A stretch of DNA of 11,547 nt, from the IMG/VR virus record IMGVR_UViG_2529292734_000012; one strand, written 5' to 3'. The position numbers and the translations under genes were made by a program. This DNA comes from a virus (taxonomy: Duplodnaviria; Heunggongvirae; Uroviricota; Caudoviricetes). Below are positions 1,497 through 11,547 of the stretch, one piece after another. The notes beneath the pieces were generated by a model that worked only from the letters and a program-made list of their open reading frames with translations, was not told the origin of the DNA and ran no database searches. The stretch's first letter is position 1. Each line of letters opens with the position of its first letter.

Positions 1497-1573
1497 CGGC
1501 ACGTAGCGCAGTCTGGTAGCGCACCGTCATGGGGTGTCGGGGGTCGGAGGTTCAAATCCTCTCGTGCCGACCA
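1497..1573 (+). tRNA. proL: tRNA-Pro (anticodon GGG), 77 nt with encoded CCA
   Basis: Sequence CGGCACGTAGCGCAG...GGTTCAAATCCTCTCGTGCCGACCA has acceptor-stem complementarity (CGGCACG/CGTGCCG), a T-loop GGTTCAAATCC and an anticodon loop AUGGGGU. It matches the E. coli proL tRNA as I recall it. Confidence 0.9.
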
Positions 1574-1781: not shown

Positions 1782-3023
1782 ATGGCACGAAAAACCACCC
1801 CACTAACTATTACGGAGATCAAAAACGCACGACCAGGGGAAAAGGAATATACCCTGCAGGATGGCGGAGGATTATTTCTTCTGGTGAAGCCCTCCGGATC
1901 AAAAATCTGGCGTTTTACGTACTACCGCCCGGCAGATAAAAAACGGACTATTATCAGCCTTGGATCGCTAAATGATGTTTCCCTGTCTGATGCCAGAGAG
2001 CGACGGAATGAATACAGGTCACTCATAGCAAAGGGAACTGACCCACAGGACTACGAACGCCGGAAACGTGAAGCAGAGAGCAGGAAAAAGGGCAACACGT
2101 TCGAAAAAGTTGCCTTGGACTGGTACGAGATGAAAAAAGGCCAGAATCTGGCTTACAACACGATTAAGGATATCTGGCGATCCCTGGAAAAATACGTATT
2201 CCCGTACATCGGAAACACGCCAATAGATACCCTCACCGCTCGCCGCTTTGTTGAGATACTCACACCCATTAAAGCACGCGGCAACCTGGAAACTCTGAAA
2301 CGCGTTTTACAACGCATCAATGAAGTGATGGATTTTGCTGCCAACAGTGGGCTGATTGACATCAACACCGCCGCGAACGTCCGCAAGGCATTCCCTTCCC
2401 CCACTAAAAAGCATATGCCAACCATCCGACCGGAACAGCTACCGCAGCTAATGCACGATTTATCGGTCGCCAGCATAGAACGGCAAACCAGATTGCTAAT
2501 CGAGTGGCAACTGCTGACCGTAGCACGCCCAGCCGAAGCAGCCGCCGCACGCTGGGAAGAAATAGATCTCGATGCCGAAACATGGACGATTCCAGCCGGA
2601 CGCATGAAGATGCGCCGTGACCATGTGATCCCTCTTTGCGGTCAGGCGATGGCTGTACTGGAAACAATGAAGCCAATCAGCGCACACAGGGAACATGTTT
2701 TTCCCAGCCTTAAAAATCCAATACTGCCAATGAGCAGCCAGACCGCTAACGCTGCATTGCGCCGGATGGGATACGCTGGTGTGCTGGTGTCTCACGGATT
2801 ACGCGCCATATTCAGTACAGCAGCGAACGAGGAAGGATTCGAGCCGGACGTAATCGAGGCCGCACTCGCACACGTGGACACGAACGAGGTAAGGCGAGCA
2901 TATAACCGAAGTAACTACCTGGAAAAACGTGTAGTACTTATGCGCTGGTGGGGTGAATTTGTGGAAGCCGCAGCAACCGGAGTGACCATAGCCAGTGGTA
3001 AAAGGGGTATCCGTGCGGTGTAA
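1782..3023 (+). CDS. int: Tyrosine site-specific integrase, P4-like family (413 aa)
   Basis: Located about 200 bp downstream of a tRNA gene. N-terminal arm-binding-like region (GLFLLVKPSGSKIWRFTYY). C-terminal catalytic motifs HGLRAIFST (H-x-x-R) and RAYNRSNY (catalytic Tyr region). Confidence 0.9.
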   Translation: MARKTTPLTITEIKNARPGEKEYTLQDGGGLFLLVKPSGSKIWRFTYYRPADKKRTIISLGSLNDVSLSDARERRNEYRSLIAKGTDPQDYERRKREAESRKKGNTFEKVALDWYEMKKGQNLAYNTIKDIWRSLEKYVFPYIGNTPIDTLTARRFVEILTPIKARGNLETLKRVLQRINEVMDFAANSGLIDINTAANVRKAFPSPTKKHMPTIRPEQLPQLMHDLSVASIERQTRLLIEWQLLTVARPAEAAAARWEEIDLDAETWTIPAGRMKMRRDHVIPLCGQAMAVLETMKPISAHREHVFPSLKNPILPMSSQTANAALRRMGYAGVLVSHGLRAIFSTAANEEGFEPDVIEAALAHVDTNEVRRAYNRSNYLEKRVVLMRWWGEFVEAAATGVTIASGKRGIRAV

Positions 3024-3548: not shown

Positions 3549-3755
3549 ATGGAAGTAATCAGAAAAATTCTTACCCGTCAGGAAGTAAAAAATATTCTGC
3601 GCATCAAGGCAGACAGTTCGCTACAGGACATGATCAACGCCGGAAAATTCCCGAAAGGCTTCAAAATCGGTCTGCGCCGTGTTGGCTGGTATGAAGATGA
3701 GGTGCAGGCCTGGTTGAAAGAACGCGAGGAAGAAGCGCGCGGAACGGCTGCGTAA
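3549..3755 (+). CDS. alpA: AlpA-family phage transcriptional regulator / excisionase-like HTH protein (68 aa)
   Basis: Short MerR-like HTH protein (LTRQEVKNILRIKADSSLQDMINAGKFPKGFKIGLRRVGWYEDEVQAWL) with the conserved Trp-containing C-terminus typical of AlpA/Vis proteins. GAGGT RBS. Position just after the integrase as in P4-like and PICI elements. Confidence 0.75.
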   Translation: MEVIRKILTRQEVKNILRIKADSSLQDMINAGKFPKGFKIGLRRVGWYEDEVQAWLKEREEEARGTAA

Positions 3756-5856: not shown

Positions 5857-6156
5857 ATGAAACTTAAATATTCTGGCTTAACTGCCAGTGGCAACACTCA
5901 CCCTAAATTTACGCGCGGCGATATTTACCGCGACCAGTACGGCGGCACGGTAATGATTAAGGGCGTGGAAGAACGGCGCGTAACCTACCGCCGTGAAGGT
6001 TACGAATATGATTGCGTGATGCCTGTTTATCAGTTCCGGCGTGATTTTTCTCTGGTACAGACCGCGCCGCATAACGTGTCCACCAGCAACGCCAGGGCAC
6101 GGGCAAACATCCAGAAGCTGAAAACCATGATTAACGGATTCAGGGGTAAAAAATGA
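5857..6156 (+). CDS. Hypothetical protein (99 aa), translationally coupled to the replication ATPase
   Basis: GGAGA RBS. Stop overlaps the start of the downstream gene (ATGA at 6153-6156). Confidence 0.5.
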   Translation: MKLKYSGLTASGNTHPKFTRGDIYRDQYGGTVMIKGVEERRVTYRREGYEYDCVMPVYQFRRDFSLVQTAPHNVSTSNARARANIQKLKTMINGFRGKK

Positions 6157-7559
6157 AACTGGCACCGAACGTAAAACTGTTACCGAAAGATAAACACACT
6201 GAGGCGGTTATTTTTGCGGGTGATAATGCTCACTCCTTTGCAGAACATTACATGATTGCACAGGCCAAAAAAGCAGGCGATCCCATCCCTCCGGTTTACC
6301 TGGGCCGTTATCAGTTAAGCGAACTGGACAATTTACAGATTGTTGATGAAGGACGATACAGAGCAAAGGTCATACGCGCCGGAAACCTGGACGATATGCA
6401 GATGCTGACCATTGCCACCAAACTGGCGATCGCAGGTGTCCGGGAAGCGCGGTTACTTTCAGAGAATTTCGAACTACTGGAGGACTGGAGCGAGCAACTA
6501 CCCCGACTTAAAGAAACCTGGGAACGCGGGGAAAGTCTGGTCATGAATGGCGGAAAGCGAAAAATCACACTTCCCATCTCATGGGGTTCTGAGGGATTCG
6601 ACGCGCAGCAAAGCTACGTAATTAAGGGGCTTATTCCGGCTGAATCATTATGCAGCACCTACGGGGCCAGCGGTTCTTATAAATCGTTCCTGGCTATTTC
6701 CTGGTCGTGTCATGTTGCCACAGGTATAGCATGGGGAGGCCGCAGGGTAAGTAAGGGCGCGGTTATCTATATCGCTGGCGAAGGCAGTATGGGCGTAAAA
6801 CGCCGCGTTAAGGCGTGGGAGATAACCCACGACAAGGTGGTTACGGATTTGTGCATCGTTAACGCGCCTGTCTTCCCTGCATCGCCTGACTATGTGGAGC
6901 AGGTTATCAGGACCGCCGGATTAGTGCAAGACAGAACGGGCGAAAGGGTGCGGATGATTGTCATTGACACACTGGCCCGTTGCTTTGGTGGTCATGATGA
7001 AAATGACTCCCGCGACATGGGGGCGTTTATCCAGGGGTGTGACGCGATAAAGCAGGCCACGGGGGCCACGGTTCTGGTTGTGCATCATTCCGGCAAGGAT
7101 GAGACGAAAGGGGCGCGGGGTTCCAGTGCATTCCGTGCGGCGCTTGATGCTGAGTTCCGAATCAGTCGGGAACATTCAGAGGCTACGGCGCTGGTTGCAG
7201 CATGTACGAAGATGAAGGACGCGGAGGAGCCAAAAGAAAGCGCCTACGACCTTAAGAGCGTGGAGGTATTTACGGATCCTGAGGGTGAAGAAATCGTGTC
7301 CATGGTGGTGATTGACGTTCCCCGCGCCCCTGCTGAACTGGAGCGCATAGAGGAGGCCGGGAACAAGACGGAAAATCACACGGCTTTATGGGGTTGTATC
7401 CGGTCACGTATACAGCATGGTGATAAATGCACGATCCCGCTGCTACGTGATGACATGAAAAAGCTGGGATATGACACAAAACACCTTAAACGATGGTTAG
7501 CCAAACTGGAAAAAGACGGCGTGATTTGCGTCGATGGGGATGATGTTCACCCACTGTAA
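6153..7559 (+). CDS. Replication initiator/helicase-like P-loop ATPase (RepA/AAA_25-like RecA-fold), 468 aa
   Basis: Deviant Walker A GASGSYKS, Walker B-like MIVIDTLARCF, and VLVVHHSGKDETKGARGSSAF typical of RepA/AAA_25-type ATPases. Followed immediately by an iteron array. Confidence 0.75.
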   Translation: MKLAPNVKLLPKDKHTEAVIFAGDNAHSFAEHYMIAQAKKAGDPIPPVYLGRYQLSELDNLQIVDEGRYRAKVIRAGNLDDMQMLTIATKLAIAGVREARLLSENFELLEDWSEQLPRLKETWERGESLVMNGGKRKITLPISWGSEGFDAQQSYVIKGLIPAESLCSTYGASGSYKSFLAISWSCHVATGIAWGGRRVSKGAVIYIAGEGSMGVKRRVKAWEITHDKVVTDLCIVNAPVFPASPDYVEQVIRTAGLVQDRTGERVRMIVIDTLARCFGGHDENDSRDMGAFIQGCDAIKQATGATVLVVHHSGKDETKGARGSSAFRAALDAEFRISREHSEATALVAACTKMKDAEEPKESAYDLKSVEVFTDPEGEEIVSMVVIDVPRAPAELERIEEAGNKTENHTALWGCIRSRIQHGDKCTIPLLRDDMKKLGYDTKHLKRWLAKLEKDGVICVDGDDVHPL

Positions 7560-7761: not shown

Positions 7762-8013
7762 ATGACCAGAAAAACCAGAGATAAGACAGCACCAAAATAT
7801 CGCGCATTAGACATGACAGAGCACGCCTTAAAGGTGGCAATCAGAACGATAGACCGCCACGCCGGAGAAGGATACGCGAAAGCACATCCCGAACTGATAA
7901 GCGCATTCATGACCACGACGGCGGCAAATTTTGCCACGCTGACAGAGCGGGAGATTGCCGAAGCGGAACAGGTAACAACAATCAACGTTAAAACCGGAGA
8001 GGTGGAATCATGA
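7762..8013 (+). CDS. Hypothetical protein (83 aa)
   Basis: ATG at 7762 preceded by AGGTGGG. The longer frame from 7630 would run through the iterons and is rejected. Stop overlaps the SSB start (ATGA). Confidence 0.45.
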   Translation: MTRKTRDKTAPKYRALDMTEHALKVAIRTIDRHAGEGYAKAHPELISAFMTTTAANFATLTEREIAEAEQVTTINVKTGEVES

Positions 8014-8432
8014 CAGCACAGATAGCGGCTTACGGGCGGCTGGTGGCTGACCCGCAGTTAAAGACCACTAGCAAAGGGACACAAATGGCGATGGCGAGTA
8101 TGGCGGTTCCCCTGCCGTGCAGCCAGGCAGATGACGGAACGGCGACGATGTGGTTATCTGTCCTGGCGTTTGGCAGACAGGCCGACGCACTGGCAAAACA
8201 CCACAAAGGCGAACTGGTGAGCGTGGCGGGTAACATGCAGGTGAGCCAGTGGACAGGCCAGAACGGGGAAACGCGGCAGGGCTGGCAGGTTATTGCAGAC
8301 AGCGTAATCAGTGCGCGAACGGCGCGACCGGGCGGCAAAAAAGGTCAACAGGGCCAGGCTACTGACGCGCTGAACAGGGCAAAACAACAGGCGGGAAATG
8401 ATGATCCGTACGGGGATAACATACCGTTTTAA
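8010..8432 (+). CDS. ssb: Single-stranded DNA-binding protein (SSB-like, 140 aa)
   Basis: OB-fold-like N-terminal region and an acidic C-terminal tail ending DDPYGDNIPF, resembling the SSB DDDIPF tail. GGAGAGGTGG RBS. Confidence 0.7.
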   Translation: MTAQIAAYGRLVADPQLKTTSKGTQMAMASMAVPLPCSQADDGTATMWLSVLAFGRQADALAKHHKGELVSVAGNMQVSQWTGQNGETRQGWQVIADSVISARTARPGGKKGQQGQATDALNRAKQQAGNDDPYGDNIPF

Positions 8433-8704: not shown

Positions 8705-9745
8705 ATGAGTGATTTATATTCGCCAGCCATGTTAATACAGGTTGTTAATGCCGAAGATATTCAATGGCAGATTAATTCTTTATTTATAAACCTGTTTTTT
8801 AAGCGAGTCGTTACATTTGAGACGCGGGATATTGCGCTTGATATTATTGACGATCCAGACATCCCGATGGCTGCATTTTGTTCCCCTATGGTTGGTAGTA
8901 AAGTCTCACGCGATGAAGGCTACGAATCAAAAGTAATTCGCCCTGGCTATATGAAGCCAAAAAGTAGTATCGACCCAAATAAAATAGCCGTTCGTCAACC
9001 AGGCGTATCACCTGAACAATTCAATGCATATTCATCACGCAGTTTCAAAATAAAGCGAGCGTTAGTAAGACAAGCGCAGGCAATTCGTGCGCGTATTGAG
9101 TGGCTTGCTGTTCAGGCGGTTACAACGGGGAAAAATATCATTGAAGGCGATGGAATTGAACGTTATGAACTGGACTGGAATATAAAACCACAAAATATTA
9201 TCACGCAGTCCGGCGGCACGGAGTGGAGCGGTAGAGATTTATCAACATTTGATCCAAACGATGACATCGAAGAGTACGCAGAAATCAGCGAAGGTACTAC
9301 AAATATCATCGTAATGGGCCGCAACGTATGGAAAAAATACCGCGCCTTTAAAGCAGTAAAAGATTGCCTTGATACTCGACGGGGATCTAATTCCGTTCTT
9401 GAAACGGCCCTGAAAAATCTTGGGGATTCTGTAAGCTTCAAGGGTTACGTTGGCGATGTTGCTATTGTGGTATATAGCGGACGTTATACCGACGAGGACG
9501 GCAAAGAAAAATATTTCCTTGATCCTGATTTGATGGTGCTTGGCAACACATCATTACAGGGCATCGTTGCCTACGGTGGCATTCAGGATCCTGAGTTAAT
9601 CAGAATGGGGCTGACTAAAGCCGAACTTGCGCCGAAAAATTACATCGTACCAGGTGATCCGGCTATTGAATATGTGCAGACGCACAGCGCACCGCAACCA
9701 ATACCGGCCCGCATCAATCGTTTTGTTACCGTTCGCATTGGTTAA
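8705..9745 (+). CDS. Phage major capsid protein, lambda gpE family (346 aa)
   Basis: Long collinear similarity to lambda gpE as I recall it: ITQSGGTEWS, FKAVK..LDTRRGSNS.LETA, GDVAIVVYSG, MVLGNT, YGGIQD. Similar length (346 vs 341 aa). AAGAGG RBS. Confidence 0.9.
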   Translation: MSDLYSPAMLIQVVNAEDIQWQINSLFINLFFKRVVTFETRDIALDIIDDPDIPMAAFCSPMVGSKVSRDEGYESKVIRPGYMKPKSSIDPNKIAVRQPGVSPEQFNAYSSRSFKIKRALVRQAQAIRARIEWLAVQAVTTGKNIIEGDGIERYELDWNIKPQNIITQSGGTEWSGRDLSTFDPNDDIEEYAEISEGTTNIIVMGRNVWKKYRAFKAVKDCLDTRRGSNSVLETALKNLGDSVSFKGYVGDVAIVVYSGRYTDEDGKEKYFLDPDLMVLGNTSLQGIVAYGGIQDPELIRMGLTKAELAPKNYIVPGDPAIEYVQTHSAPQPIPARINRFVTVRIG

Positions 9746-9754
9746 GGGGGAGCA

Positions 9755-10096
9755 ATGGCTACTCATTACACTGAACTCATGGCTGGCACTGAAGCACTGG
9801 TTACTACGTTGGGGATATTTTCAGCTAATAAAGGGGTAATTCCTGCATTTACGCCACTGATGCAAGAAGATGCAACTGGTGCACTGGTGGTATGGGATGG
9901 AACGAGCGCAGGCAAAGCTGTTTATGTTTCCGCTGTACAAATCGATACAGCGACAAAAACGCAGGCTCAGGTTTATAAAACCGGCGTCTTAAATGTTGAT
10001 GCTCTGAACTGGCCTGAGTCTGTAACACAACTATCAGCAAAAGTTGCTGCGTTTGTTGGCTCAGGTATTTCTGTTCAGCCGCTGGCACGTGTGTGA
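9755..10096 (+). CDS. Head decoration protein, lambda gpD family (113 aa)
   Basis: AFTPLMQEDATGALVVWDGTSAGKAV...YKTGVLNVDALNWPE...AFVGSGISV parallels lambda gpD ([26 protein letters not shown]...YKSGTFRYEDVLWPE...AFAGTAISIV). Confidence 0.85.
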   Translation: MATHYTELMAGTEALVTTLGIFSANKGVIPAFTPLMQEDATGALVVWDGTSAGKAVYVSAVQIDTATKTQAQVYKTGVLNVDALNWPESVTQLSAKVAAFVGSGISVQPLARV

Positions 10097-10105
10097 GGTA
10101 CGAGA

Positions 10106-10423
10106 ATGATTGAAAGAGATAGTCAGCTACGAGAGCTATTAGATATCGATGACAAAATGAGTTTAAGCGAGCGCCTTGTTGATATGGATCAGGTAGTGGA
10201 GCTTACAACCCTTAGCCGTCGCACATTGCTAAACCTTGAGGCTCGCGGAGAGTTCCCCGAACGCGTACAGGTTACGAAAGGGCGCAAGGCATGGTATTTA
10301 AGCGAGGTTGTTGCGTGGATTAACAACATTCCGCGCGCATCAAATTATTGCCTTGTTCCCACCCCGAAAAACCTGATGCGGCGTTATGCCTCAAGATTGA
10401 ACGCGCCAGGCGTAATGCCCTGA
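10106..10423 (+). CDS. HTH DNA-binding protein (AlpA/MerR-like HTH_17 type), 105 aa
   Basis: VVELTTLSRRTLLNLEARGEFPERVQVTKGRKAWYLSEVVAWI resembles the AlpA/excisionase-type HTH. GAGGT RBS. Lies between the decoration gene and cos. Confidence 0.55.
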   Translation: MIERDSQLRELLDIDDKMSLSERLVDMDQVVELTTLSRRTLLNLEARGEFPERVQVTKGRKAWYLSEVVAWINNIPRASNYCLVPTPKNLMRRYASRLNAPGVMP

Positions 10424-10489
10424 AAGGACGCAATAAGTTGATTGGTTGATGAAATTAGGGCCCGTTCTGGCTGGCGGGTCCTTTCCGGC

Positions 10490-10545
10490 GATCCGGCAGG
10501 CTACGGGGCGGCGACCTTGCGGTTTTTCGCTATTTATGAGCTTTT
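10490..10545. other. Lambda-type cos site (cosN cohesive-end sequence GGGCGGCGACCT at 10506-10517, plus start of cosB)
   Basis: ctACGGGGCGGCGACCTtGCGGtTTTTCGCTATTTATGAg matches the lambda left-end/cosN sequence GGGCGGCGACCTCGCGGGTTTTCGCTATTTATGAAAA (from memory) with a few substitutions. Sits about 130 bp upstream of a Nu1-like gene, as in lambda. Confidence 0.7.
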
Positions 10546-10548
10546 TCA

Positions 10549-10577
10549 GGGTGGTGGTGGTGGTTTTGTTGTTTGTT
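10549..10577. repeat. Short simple-sequence repeat (GGT)5 followed by a T/G-rich (TTG)n-like tract inside the cosB-equivalent region
   Basis: GGGTGGTGGTGGTGGTTTTGTTGTTTGTT. Confidence 0.6.
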
Positions 10578-10649
10578 CTATCTCCATGAATGAAAAGGGA
10601 AGATAACACCAACACACCAACCTGAAACCTTAACTAAGTGGGGATATTG

Positions 10650-11192
10650 ATGAAATCGCACCTGATGAACAAAAAAACTATGGCGCAAAGCTGCCGCGTA
10701 AGTGCGACAGCGTTCGACAAGTGGGGAGTGACTCCCGTTGAGCGTAAAGGCCGTGAGGCGTTTTATGATGTTGCTAGCGTGATAGACAATAGGGTTAACA
10801 ATGCAATTAACCAACTTACAAACGACAAAGGCGAGATTGATGATGATGAACTTTTACGCGTAAGAATCAGATTAATGACGGCCCAGGCGGAAGCGCAGGA
10901 ACTTAAAAACGAGCGCGAACGCGGCGAGGTGATTGATACAAAGTTTTGCATCTACGCGATTTCAAAGCTGGCACAACAAATTTCTTCAATCATGGACAGC
11001 CTCCCGCTCACAATGCAAAGGCGCTTTCCCGATATAAGGCCGTATATGCTGGATGAACTAAAAAGGGAAATAGTCAAAGCATGTAACGCATGTGCAAGAC
11101 TTGACGAAAACCTGCCACAGATACTGGCTGATTACCTGATGGAAACTACCGGAAACGTGCCTGAGAAGTTGCTACAGAACAAAGGCGAGTAA
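10650..11192 (+). CDS. Terminase small subunit, lambda Nu1-like (start uncertain: 10638 GTG, 10650 ATG or 10665 ATG)
   Basis: LMTAQAEAQELKNERERGEVIDTKFCIYAISKLAQQISSIMDSLPLTMQRRFPDI parallels lambda Nu1 LTRAQADAQELKNARDSAEVVETAFCTFVLSRIAGEIASILDGLPLSVQRRFPEL. The N-terminal DNA-binding region is more divergent. Confidence 0.8.
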   Translation: MKSHLMNKKTMAQSCRVSATAFDKWGVTPVERKGREAFYDVASVIDNRVNNAINQLTNDKGEIDDDELLRVRIRLMTAQAEAQELKNERERGEVIDTKFCIYAISKLAQQISSIMDSLPLTMQRRFPDIRPYMLDELKREIVKACNACARLDENLPQILADYLMETTGNVPEKLLQNKGE

Positions 11193-11265
11193 CCGCCGCC
11201 CCGTAACGGGCCATAATTCCAGGAAGGACCCGACGACACCAGGCTATCAGAACGATGAGGGCACA

Positions 11266-11547
11266 ATGACTGAAGCCGAACTACTGGGATTAATCCGCCG
11301 CGTCGTCGGAATCAGCCAGCAGCATGACGAACAGGCCACACAGCCGGACAGCGTGACCGCTGAAAATTATGTGCGTGTTGTTGCTGAGGTGATGCGCCGT
11401 GATGGTATTGAGCTTAACGGCGTGGATATGCGCAACATACGAACAAGAGTCCTTGAGTTGCTGGCATACCGTCGCCGTTCTCAACAACGGAGGGAGAGCG
11501 CGAAAAATACTTACCAGTGGAAGAAGCCGGAACGGTTGCGGCGGTAG
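11266..11547 (+). CDS. Hypothetical protein (93 aa), Arg-rich C-terminus; stop codon is the last three bases of the window
   Basis: ATG preceded by GAGGG. Occupies the position where lambda has gene A but shows no resemblance to gpA. Confidence 0.4.
   Translation: MTEAELLGLIRRVVGISQQHDEQATQPDSVTAENYVRVVAEVMRRDGIELNGVDMRNIRTRVLELLAYRRRSQQRRESAKNTYQWKKPERLRR

Follow-up and report, generated by a model that had tools for sequence, protein, structure and literature searches.

How does a mobile element that carries a small terminase gene next to a lambda-like cohesive-end site, with no large terminase gene of its own, have its DNA packaged? This question is raised by a stretch of 11,547 nucleotides (hereafter the window) from the IMG/VR record IMGVR_UViG_2529292734_000012, a virus of the Caudoviricetes, in which a cos site is directly followed by a gene of the Nu1 family. 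The answer that we regard as probable is that positions 10476-11192 represent the packaging module of a lambda-dependent satellite, whose own small terminase (TerS) and private cosB redirect the large terminase (TerL) of a helper phage to satellite DNA. According to this explanation, the satellite would keep cosQ and cosN of the helper type, the sites of helper TerL action, while the helper cosB would have been replaced by a private one, consisting of a G/T tract in the place of R3 and of an inverted A/C tract some 60 bp further on. After induction and replication, the satellite TerS would bind the satellite cosB at its G/T and A/C sites and position the helper TerL on cosN, giving rise to 12-nt cohesive ends, and the satellite concatemers would be packaged into heads made by the helper. 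The helper TerS, which reads a different cosB, would not efficiently recognise the satellite DNA. An earlier note on this DNA had already pictured a device that borrows the helper TerL and redirects recognition to the element's own cos; the combination of helper-type cosQ and cosN with a private cosB, an own TerS and no TerL agrees with that picture, whereas the retention of the gpA-interaction region, which was part of it, is not supported. Redirection of packaging to the private cosB appears well supported, since the recognition helix of TerS and cosB are conserved jointly in satellites and are distinct from the phage-type copies, and since the linked helpers carry mismatching ones. That TerS binds the G/T tract, that the helper TerL is recruited and that the helper may suffer interference is what we infer from the sequence.

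The joint conservation emerges from two groups of loci. In the satellite group (95 loci), every TerS displays a helix of the type xxTAFDKW, either VSATAFDKW or VGVTAFDKW, and 94 copies bear GGTGGTGGT at the R3 position; TerL is absent from the 78 loci with enough downstream DNA, the other 17 being located at contig ends. The phage-type group (32 loci), which spans N15, Escherichia prophages, Pseudomonas, Aeromonas and Halomonas, uniformly displays the helix SVQAFDKW together with an R3 site of the GGTTGTTGTT, or GTT, type (32/32 for each), and TerL is the next gene in 31 of these loci. Several phage-type loci (e.g. L022) also harbor an inverted ACAACAACC and a middle block that is colinear with the window, and the A/C tract of the window is colinear with ACAACAACCTGA of the Monarch-type phage cosB. 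We therefore read the satellite TerS and cosB as a branch of the N15/Monarch class that underwent a joint change of the helix and of both R sites. It is the contacts between the N-terminal helix of TerS and R3 that determine packaging specificity in lambda, 21 and N15 (PMC4669245, PMC9026076).

The stretch from 10476 to 10627 is clearly recognisable as a cos site (this and all other features are on the + strand, unless otherwise stated). It opens with the cosQ heptamer GGGTCCT (10476..10482), a named conserved 7-bp site (PMC4669245), the sequence of which and its spacing from cosN are as in lambda, 21, N15 and cos1 of EcCICFT073. The cohesive-end 12-mer of cosN, GGGCGGCGACCT (10506..10517), is preceded by a TTACG-type flank and proved identical to that of lambda, exactly as the earlier note had it, and also to that of 21. 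The 16-mer TACGGGGCGGCGACCT around cosN occurs once in the window, with 0.05 chance matches expected even at 3 mismatches. The right flank of cosN (bp 13-43; 10518..10548), which includes CGCTATTTATGA, is common to lambda and 21, with about 90% identity to lambdoid phages and a column conservation of 0.94 among 51 distinct satellite sequences. The lambda likeness claimed for the first ~25 bp was likewise confirmed, as 20 of 22 positions from bp 13 to bp 34 equal those of lambda (bp 13 of the window copy being T, not C), and the likeness to lambda and 21 stops at about bp 44. In 11 of the 78 IMG/VR loci, bp 6-12 of cosN were found to vary with cosB unchanged. Such cohesive-end variants, e.g. 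GGGCGTCAGGCG or GGGCGGAGACCT, occur at these 11 loci and at L011 (2570-2590); in the latter, the satellite cosN reads GGGCGTCAGGCG and that of the surrounding helper prophage GGGCGGCGACCT, so that the cohesive ends of satellite and helper would not match. A rule according to which cosN would track the helper, and cosB the satellite TerS, was rejected on the basis of L011, where cosN differs from that of the helper, and of the 11 variable loci.

Comparison of the cos region with lambda and 21, a check that the earlier note had proposed, showed the shared cosQ, cosN and right flank to be followed by a different cosB, as expected from its claim that the region between cosN and the TerS gene diverges from lambda. 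When the window was submitted to blastn against 50,697 INPHARED phage records, only 10474-10551 aligned (88-91% identity) and 10552-10660 matched no phage; a cosB identical to that of a known helper phage, which would have spoken against a change of specificity, was not encountered among these records. The (GGT)n tract mentioned in the earlier note corresponds to (GGT)5 at 10550-10564. It is part of a G/T tract at the R3 position (10549..10577), the proposed TerS binding site, which at 29 nt is the longest G/T-only run in the window; the longest run in 1000 shuffles was 23 nt, and none of the 1000 reached 29. Within this tract, the G/T core at bp 50-68 (10555-10573), TGGTGGTGGTTTTGTTGTT, is invariant. 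With the sequences aligned by distance from cosN, bp 48-59, to which the R3 site of N15 has been mapped experimentally (PMC4669245), read GGTGGTGGTGGT in the window versus GAGGTTGTTGTT in N15. The inverted A/C tract ACACCAACACACCAACCTGAAA (10605..10627), proposed as an R2-like site in the opposite orientation, contains the longest A/C-only run of the window (18 nt; 10605-10622), which lies 28 nt downstream of the G/T run; it forms the inverted repeat I1 with 10544-10556, the two tracts being linked by 13-nt inverted arms (TTTCAGGGTGGTG and CACCAACCTGAAA).

Column conservation, as computed from a MAFFT alignment of 75 E. coli satellite loci (51 distinct sequences), amounts to 0.983 for bp 50-68, 0.982 for the ACACCAACCTGAA block at bp 105-121, 0.959 for cosN, 0.887 for the middle block, 0.834 for the stretch before the ATG and 0.669 for the 40 bp further upstream; no other non-coding columns are as well conserved as those of the G/T and A/C blocks, which exceed even cosN. 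The block ACACCAACCTG stands at a constant distance in 77 of 78 loci, the cosN-to-ATG spacing is identical in 77 of the 78 IMG/VR loci, and one A is missing from the middle block of the window cosB. Satellites of Kosakonia, Superficieibacter, Citrobacter and Enterobacter, whose TerS proteins are only 55-56% identical and in which the remaining spacer is unrelated, keep both blocks as GGTGGTGGTGTTGTTGTT and ATACACCCAC(C/T)TG. Taken as a phylogenetic footprint, the two blocks mark a pair of inverted sites, like R3 and R2 of the complex lambdoid cosB. A search for a remote rR2 inside terS, in the style of N15, yielded nothing convincing, the only G/T or A/C tracts being AACAAAAAAAC and CACAACAAA.

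The gene directly downstream of this cosQ-cosN-cosB array (10650..11192, ATG at 10650) encodes a full-length small terminase of the Nu1 family, with 180 aa and the helix VSATAFDKW. The protein matched Pfam PF07471 Phage_Nu1 at 86.1 bits (cut-off 30; E = 2.7e-24) and phrog_57 over residues 1-173 (E = 1.9e-52), while no NCBIfam model was matched. It shares 37% identity with lambda Nu1 over 179 aa, distributed as 33% (residues 1-60), 48% (61-127) and 39% (128-165). The divergent N-terminus noted earlier was thus found with respect to lambda, but it is not an orphan sequence, the closest phage relative being N15 gp1 with 48% identity overall and 53% over residues 1-60; similarly, of the central and C-terminal region said to be kept, the central part is, but the C-terminal part is about as diverged as the N-terminus. 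Nor is the protein a Nu1 paralog, as it had been called, but a homologue carried by a different element. TerS and N15 gp1 have in common a shortened DNA-binding domain and the motif AFDKWGV..PVE.GRE, which identifies the N-terminal domain as one of the N15/Monarch class with a changed recognition helix, and neither as orphan nor as new. A profile of 16 satellite TerS sequences matched residues 1-98 of lambda TerS (6HN7_B, DNA-binding domain; E = 0.0038) with residues 6-84 aligned. When the AlphaFold model built from the 16-sequence alignment was submitted to Foldseek, it retrieved the MerR-type winged helix-turn-helix (wHTH) proteins RacA, BldC and GlnR, none of them significantly (all E > 0.09), the model being of low confidence. 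Among six E. coli island copies, the ratio of non-synonymous to synonymous substitution rates (dN/dS) of terS ranges from 0.10 to 0.26 overall, with 0.03-0.19 for residues 1-60 versus 0.13-0.37 for the C-terminal region. terS is under purifying selection, and this includes the C-terminal region, though it evolves faster.

Two satellites that lie inside prophages allow the presumed helper to be viewed side by side with its satellite. In L011, the satellite is inserted in the capsid gene of a prophage that has essentially the cos and Nu1 of lambda; in L009, it is inserted in the portal gene of a prophage whose TerS DNA-binding domain is of a third class and whose cosB is of the ATGTCCGG type. 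In both cases, the cosB and TerS helix of the satellite are wholly different from those of the presumed helper, which is what redirection requires. With regard to TerL, the C-terminus of TerS binds gpA in lambda (PMC9026076), the TerL-binding part corresponding to the C-terminal 40-50 residues. Phage TerS proteins are modular in this respect: an N15-class DNA-binding domain is combined with a C-terminus of the lambda type in N15 and of class III in the Escherichia prophage L018, each C-terminus corresponding to the N-terminus of the neighbouring TerL (pairs L005, L018, L013 and L055).

Several observations weigh against the proposal that the satellite TerS and its private cosB redirect the helper TerL. 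The partition of helix and cosB types may go back to a single event in the ancestor of one clade, and the database search patterns were built on this very helix. The R sites differ from those of N15-class phages by G/T changes alone, and the TerS of N15 is tolerant, as it packages lambda DNA (PMC4669245). The integration host factor (IHF) consensus WATCAANNNNTTR, searched for with at most one mismatch, was not found between the two tracts, and the same scan did find lambda I1. The predicted TerS structure shows its elements in the order to be expected (strand, helix, helix, hairpin, helix), but has a mean pLDDT (predicted local distance difference test) of only 57. As regards TerL, a match of the satellite TerS C-terminus to one helper TerS/TerL class was sought and rejected, since this region is only ~39% identical to that of lambda, 21 and class III, and 34% to that of N15; in phages, by comparison, the C-terminus of TerS and the N-terminus of TerL vary in concert, N15 having the lambda type of both TerS C-terminus and TerL, and L018 the class III type of both. 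Moreover, the TerL class differs between the helpers to which satellites with near-identical C-termini are linked. With no helper TerL class matched by this C-terminus, direct recruitment of the helper TerL is among the parts that we infer. Finally, both TerS-encoding E. coli islands tested in 2018 were not transferred upon induction of resident prophages (PMC6092414).

The data on the C-terminus leave room for a different way of recruiting TerL, one which we consider unlikely, though to be taken seriously. In an assembly similar to that of Rpp, the satellite TerS would join the helper TerS through the central oligomerisation region, so that the helper C-terminus brings in TerL and the satellite domain reads the satellite cosB; a mixed complex of this kind would also spoil the recognition of the helper cosB and lead to interference, and it departs from the explanation given above only in the way TerL is recruited. 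The central region (61-127) is indeed the best conserved one relative to the TerS of lambda, 21, N15 and class III (42-51%), the C-terminus matching none of these helper classes (34-39%), and an almost unchanged C-terminus is found in satellites whose linked helpers belong to different TerL classes; in addition, terS occupies the slot of rpp, and Rpp works exactly in this manner (PMC6739421). What such an assembly leaves unaccounted for is the full-length C-terminal region, kept under purifying selection (dN/dS 0.13-0.37), which would be needless if the helper TerS supplied the binding to TerL, and which the Rpp proteins have lost (PMC9026076).

Another reading denies the satellite any private specificity: its natural helpers would be lambdoid prophages of the N15/Monarch class, and its TerS and cosB a slightly drifted copy of theirs, each being able to read the other. 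Colinearity of the window cosB with that of Monarch-type phages (R3, the CTATCT..ATGAA block, inverted R2 and CCTGA), an R-site difference that comes down to GTT versus GGT alone, the existence of Escherichia prophages with an N15-class TerS and a lambda-type cosN (L017, L018) and the tolerance of N15 TerS for lambda R3 (PMC4669245) would all fit. We nevertheless hold this improbable, as the helix and R-site types partition perfectly between 95 and 32 loci, as phages from Escherichia to Pseudomonas show no variation in the Q-helix, which makes a fixed change from Q to T notable, and as neither of the physically linked helpers examined is of the N15 class. That cos and terS would simply be the functionless leftover of a decaying lambdoid prophage is very improbable indeed: the second cos of the window is truncated and the neighbouring AlpA-like gene shows a 5' deletion and a frameshift, but the terS reading frame is intact with a dN/dS of ~0.15, at least 80% of the segment is found in 759 of 5426 complete E. 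coli genomes, its place in the island module is constant across five genera, and its non-coding blocks are better conserved than their flanks.

Going beyond the window, one might tentatively suppose, with a good deal more doubt than attaches to the module itself, that the TerS-type cassette is the main packaging strategy of the lambda-dependent satellites of E. coli and operates through a satellite-only TerS lineage. This lineage would owe its specificity to a shift within the N15/Monarch class, the change from Q to T in the helix being matched by that from GTT to GGT in R3 and in the inverted R2; its C-terminus would be either a generalist, or novel, one serving several TerL classes or a part of mixed oligomers with the helper TerS; and a single protein would both redirect and poison helper packaging. 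If this were true, the inverted (ACC)n tract of the Rpp-type cosB would point to a common origin of both cosB types. In EcCICFT073 cos1 (L004:2560-2625), CACCACCACCAC is located at bp 54-65, the (GGT)n of TerS-type islands being found at bp 45-59. CACCACCACCAC is similar to the inverted arm CACC(A/C)AC(C/T)TGA of those islands, which could mean a shared origin.

The element itself can be assigned to the EcCICFT073/EcCIIHE3034 family of Gram-negative phage-inducible chromosomal islands (PICIs), integrated at the tRNA-Pro that adjoins yejM. In EcCICFT073, the right end of the island consists of a capsid homologue, a decoration homologue, a 137-aa gene, cos1, rppA (144 aa), an inverted cos2 and a 93-aa gene. 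In the islands of E. coli O157:H7 TW14359 and IHE3034, whose flanks share 90-96% identity with EcCICFT073, terS takes the place of rppA between cos1 and cos2. terS and rpp thus present themselves as alternative cassettes for one slot of a known island family, and the TerS proteins of the window and of EcCIIHE3034 share 87% identity. The products of terS and rpp are another matter: the alignment of TerS with the published PICI redirection proteins RppA and RppC, as proposed in the earlier note, gave no sign of relatedness, TerS showing no similarity to RppA (BLASTP E = 7) and no match to the RppC chains in PDB up to E = 1, which places it outside the Rpp proteins. RppA itself matched phrog_57 over its residues 7-47 only (profile positions 12-52). 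Of the 5426 complete E. coli genomes, ~14% contain the terS segment over at least 80% of its length and 97 (~2%) contain the rppA cassette, so that the terS cassette is ~8 times commoner, a ratio that is approximate because RppC-type islands would escape the DNA search used.

Abutting the terS stop codon, the window carries a second, truncated cos in inverted orientation (11190..11231, - strand), in which cosQ' (11225-11231), CGTAA and 8 of the 12 cosN bases (11194-11201) are left. The EcCIIHE3034, O157:H7, L009 and EcCICFT073 islands have kept the whole inverted cos2 together with a phage-type cosB, and the IHE3034 and O157 islands have identical TerS C-termini and different types of cos2 cosB. 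The cosB of cos2 is of the 21 type in IHE3034 and L009, and that of EcCICFT073 matches the class III prophage L055.

The window starts with the 3' portion of yejM, followed by tRNA-Pro (GGG; 1497..1573, detected by ARAGORN), the integration target, and by an island whose genes are all co-oriented; the order yejM, tRNA-Pro, integrase also occurs in an annotated relative. The left island end is formed by the tyrosine integrase of the satellite (1782..3023; Pfam Phage_integrase and Arm-DNA-bind_3). A survey of open reading frames (ORFs) with Pfam further identified alpA (3549-3755), an AAA_25/RepA-like helicase (6153-7559) and a single-stranded DNA-binding protein (SSB; 8010-8432). The conserved module is opened by a homologue of the lambda gpE major capsid protein (8705..9745; Pfam Phage_cap_E, E = 2.7e-41), a gene found upstream of TerS in satellites from five genera, and continues with a homologue of the lambda gpD head decoration protein (9755..10096; Pfam HDPD, E = 2.6e-16) and with a second AlpA-family wHTH gene directly upstream of cos (10106..10423; Pfam Phage_AlpA; PDB 8c3t, E = 4e-10). 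The latter encodes 105 aa in the window versus 127 aa in relatives (L001 among those compared), owing to a 5' deletion of ~41 nt and a frameshifted C-terminal tail that leave the wHTH core intact. In satellites of Citrobacter, Enterobacter and Kosakonia, terS is found together with the 127-aa form of this gene; a tie between the two was nevertheless rejected, as the TerS-type islands of O157 and IHE3034 carry the 137-aa gene at this place. The 137-aa protein upstream of cos1 (c1501, L004:2084-2497; also L010 and L014), for which there is no gene in the window, matched the C-terminal end of the head maturation protease phrog_53 (E = 1e-8), which suggests a scaffold-like fragment. Downstream of the packaging cassette, in Rpp-type and TerS-type islands alike, lies the gene for a conserved 93-aa protein of unknown function (11266..11547; phrog_1561), and the last base of the window is the end of its stop codon (11547).

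The survey revealed no genes for TerL, portal, protease, tail or lysis among the ORFs of the window. The layout agrees with that of a PICI in having a left-end integrase, alpA, a replication module, co-oriented genes, a length of ~10 kb and its own attachment site, and it differs from that of a capsid-forming PICI (cf-PICI), of whose hallmarks (own TerL, portal, protease, head-tail connectors and HNH) none was found, only the capsid and decoration homologues and TerS being present. In annotated E. coli relatives, the same island sits between tRNA-Pro and yejO, and ends just past the 93-aa gene. Among complete RefSeq E. coli genomes, the best match to the whole window covers 85% of it at 95.5% identity, and none holds all of it at high identity; TerS genes identical to that of the window are found on two IMG/VR contigs of ~9-10 kb (L056 and L057). 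Otherwise similar islands have either the RepA-like helicase or a primase as their replication module, which points to a mosaic structure. In Citrobacter satellites (L052-L054; 5516-6127), a homologue of Lambda_tail_I (tail tip) was seen right after terS, which is unusual for islands held to lack tail genes.

Part of this picture is established knowledge: TerS counts as one of the core components of PICIs, with the redirection of packaging as its role (PMC10085698), and a 2018 study catalogued E. coli PICIs that encode TerS (PMC6092414); two of the PICIs tested there, EcCIIHE3034 among them, were noted to encode TerS, the mechanism not being studied. The Rpp papers and the Murialdo-Feiss analysis cover Rpp-type islands only (PMC6739421, PMC9026076), and in the literature searched we found no analysis of the cos or TerS of TerS-encoding E. 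coli PICIs. The general principle of redirection being already accepted, what is gained here is detail and not concept; as far as can be told, the N15-class origin, the paired change of helix and R site and the unmatched C-terminus appear to be undescribed. Satellites of this family carry virulence and defence genes between enterobacteria, and Rpp is the sole mechanistic model for the capture of lambda-type packaging by them, the commoner terS cassette being unstudied. Satellites and phages moreover offer a natural specificity pair, differing by one helix residue and one base per triplet, which could be used to ask how TerS reads cosB, and they raise the question of how one TerS C-terminus could serve several helper large terminases.

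Overall, the module can be set against five known systems. With lambda Nu1 and its cos, it shares the Pfam family, the order cosQ-cosN-cosB-terS, identical cosQ and cosN and a nearly identical right flank; unlike lambda, the window has no R3, R2 or R1 sequences of the lambda type, no detected IHF consensus and no A (TerL) gene after TerS. With the TerS and cosB of the N15/Monarch class (Feiss et al. 2015, PMC4669245), it has in common the short domain, an R3 at bp 48-59 in the form of a G/T triplet repeat and the inverted-R2 layout of the Monarch type. This class, however, is characterised by the helix ISVQAFDKW and an R3 of G(A/T)GGTTGTTGTT at bp 48-59, compared with VSATAFDKW and GGTGGTGGTGGT in the window, which therefore falls outside its specificity class; furthermore, the cosN of N15 is GGGCGGCGTCCG, unlike the GGGCGGCGACCT of the window, and TerL follows the terS genes of this class, which is not the case for satellite terS.

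The staphylococcal islands (SaPIs) resemble the window in principle, in that the satellite small terminase TerS_S reads its own packaging site and uses the helper TerL (PMC6739421, PMC6092414), but they rely on a headful pac instead of a cos, block the helper TerS with a second protein, Ppi, and involve other host and phage families. Closer at hand, cos1 of EcCICFT073 with its Rpp (PMC6739421; PMC9026076) belongs to the same family, with Rpp in the slot that terS takes up in the window, bounded by cos1 and the 93-aa gene, and joins helper-type cosQ and cosN to a private cosB, presumably likewise for redirecting the helper terminase to island DNA. Rpp (139-154 aa), in contrast to the full TerS of the window, consists of a lambda-type DNA-binding domain and its own dimerisation helices without the C-terminus of TerS, and requires the helper TerS, while the cosB of the Rpp type contains CACCACCACCAC, to which the window tract is reverse-complementary. 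The nearest counterparts are the TerS-encoding PICIs EcCIIHE3034 (coordinates taken from the supplement of PMC6092414) and EcCI18098 (Fillol-Salom et al. 2018, PMC6092414), which resemble the window in cosQ, cosN, the G/T tract and the ACACCAACCTG block of cos1, and in the gene order capsid homologue, decoration homologue, one gene, cos, terS and 93-aa gene. They differ from it in the integration site (cspD-clpS versus tRNA-Pro/yejM), the replication gene (primase versus RepA-like helicase), the gene upstream of cos (137-aa protein versus AlpA-like) and the inverted cos2, which is complete in these two islands and truncated in the window.

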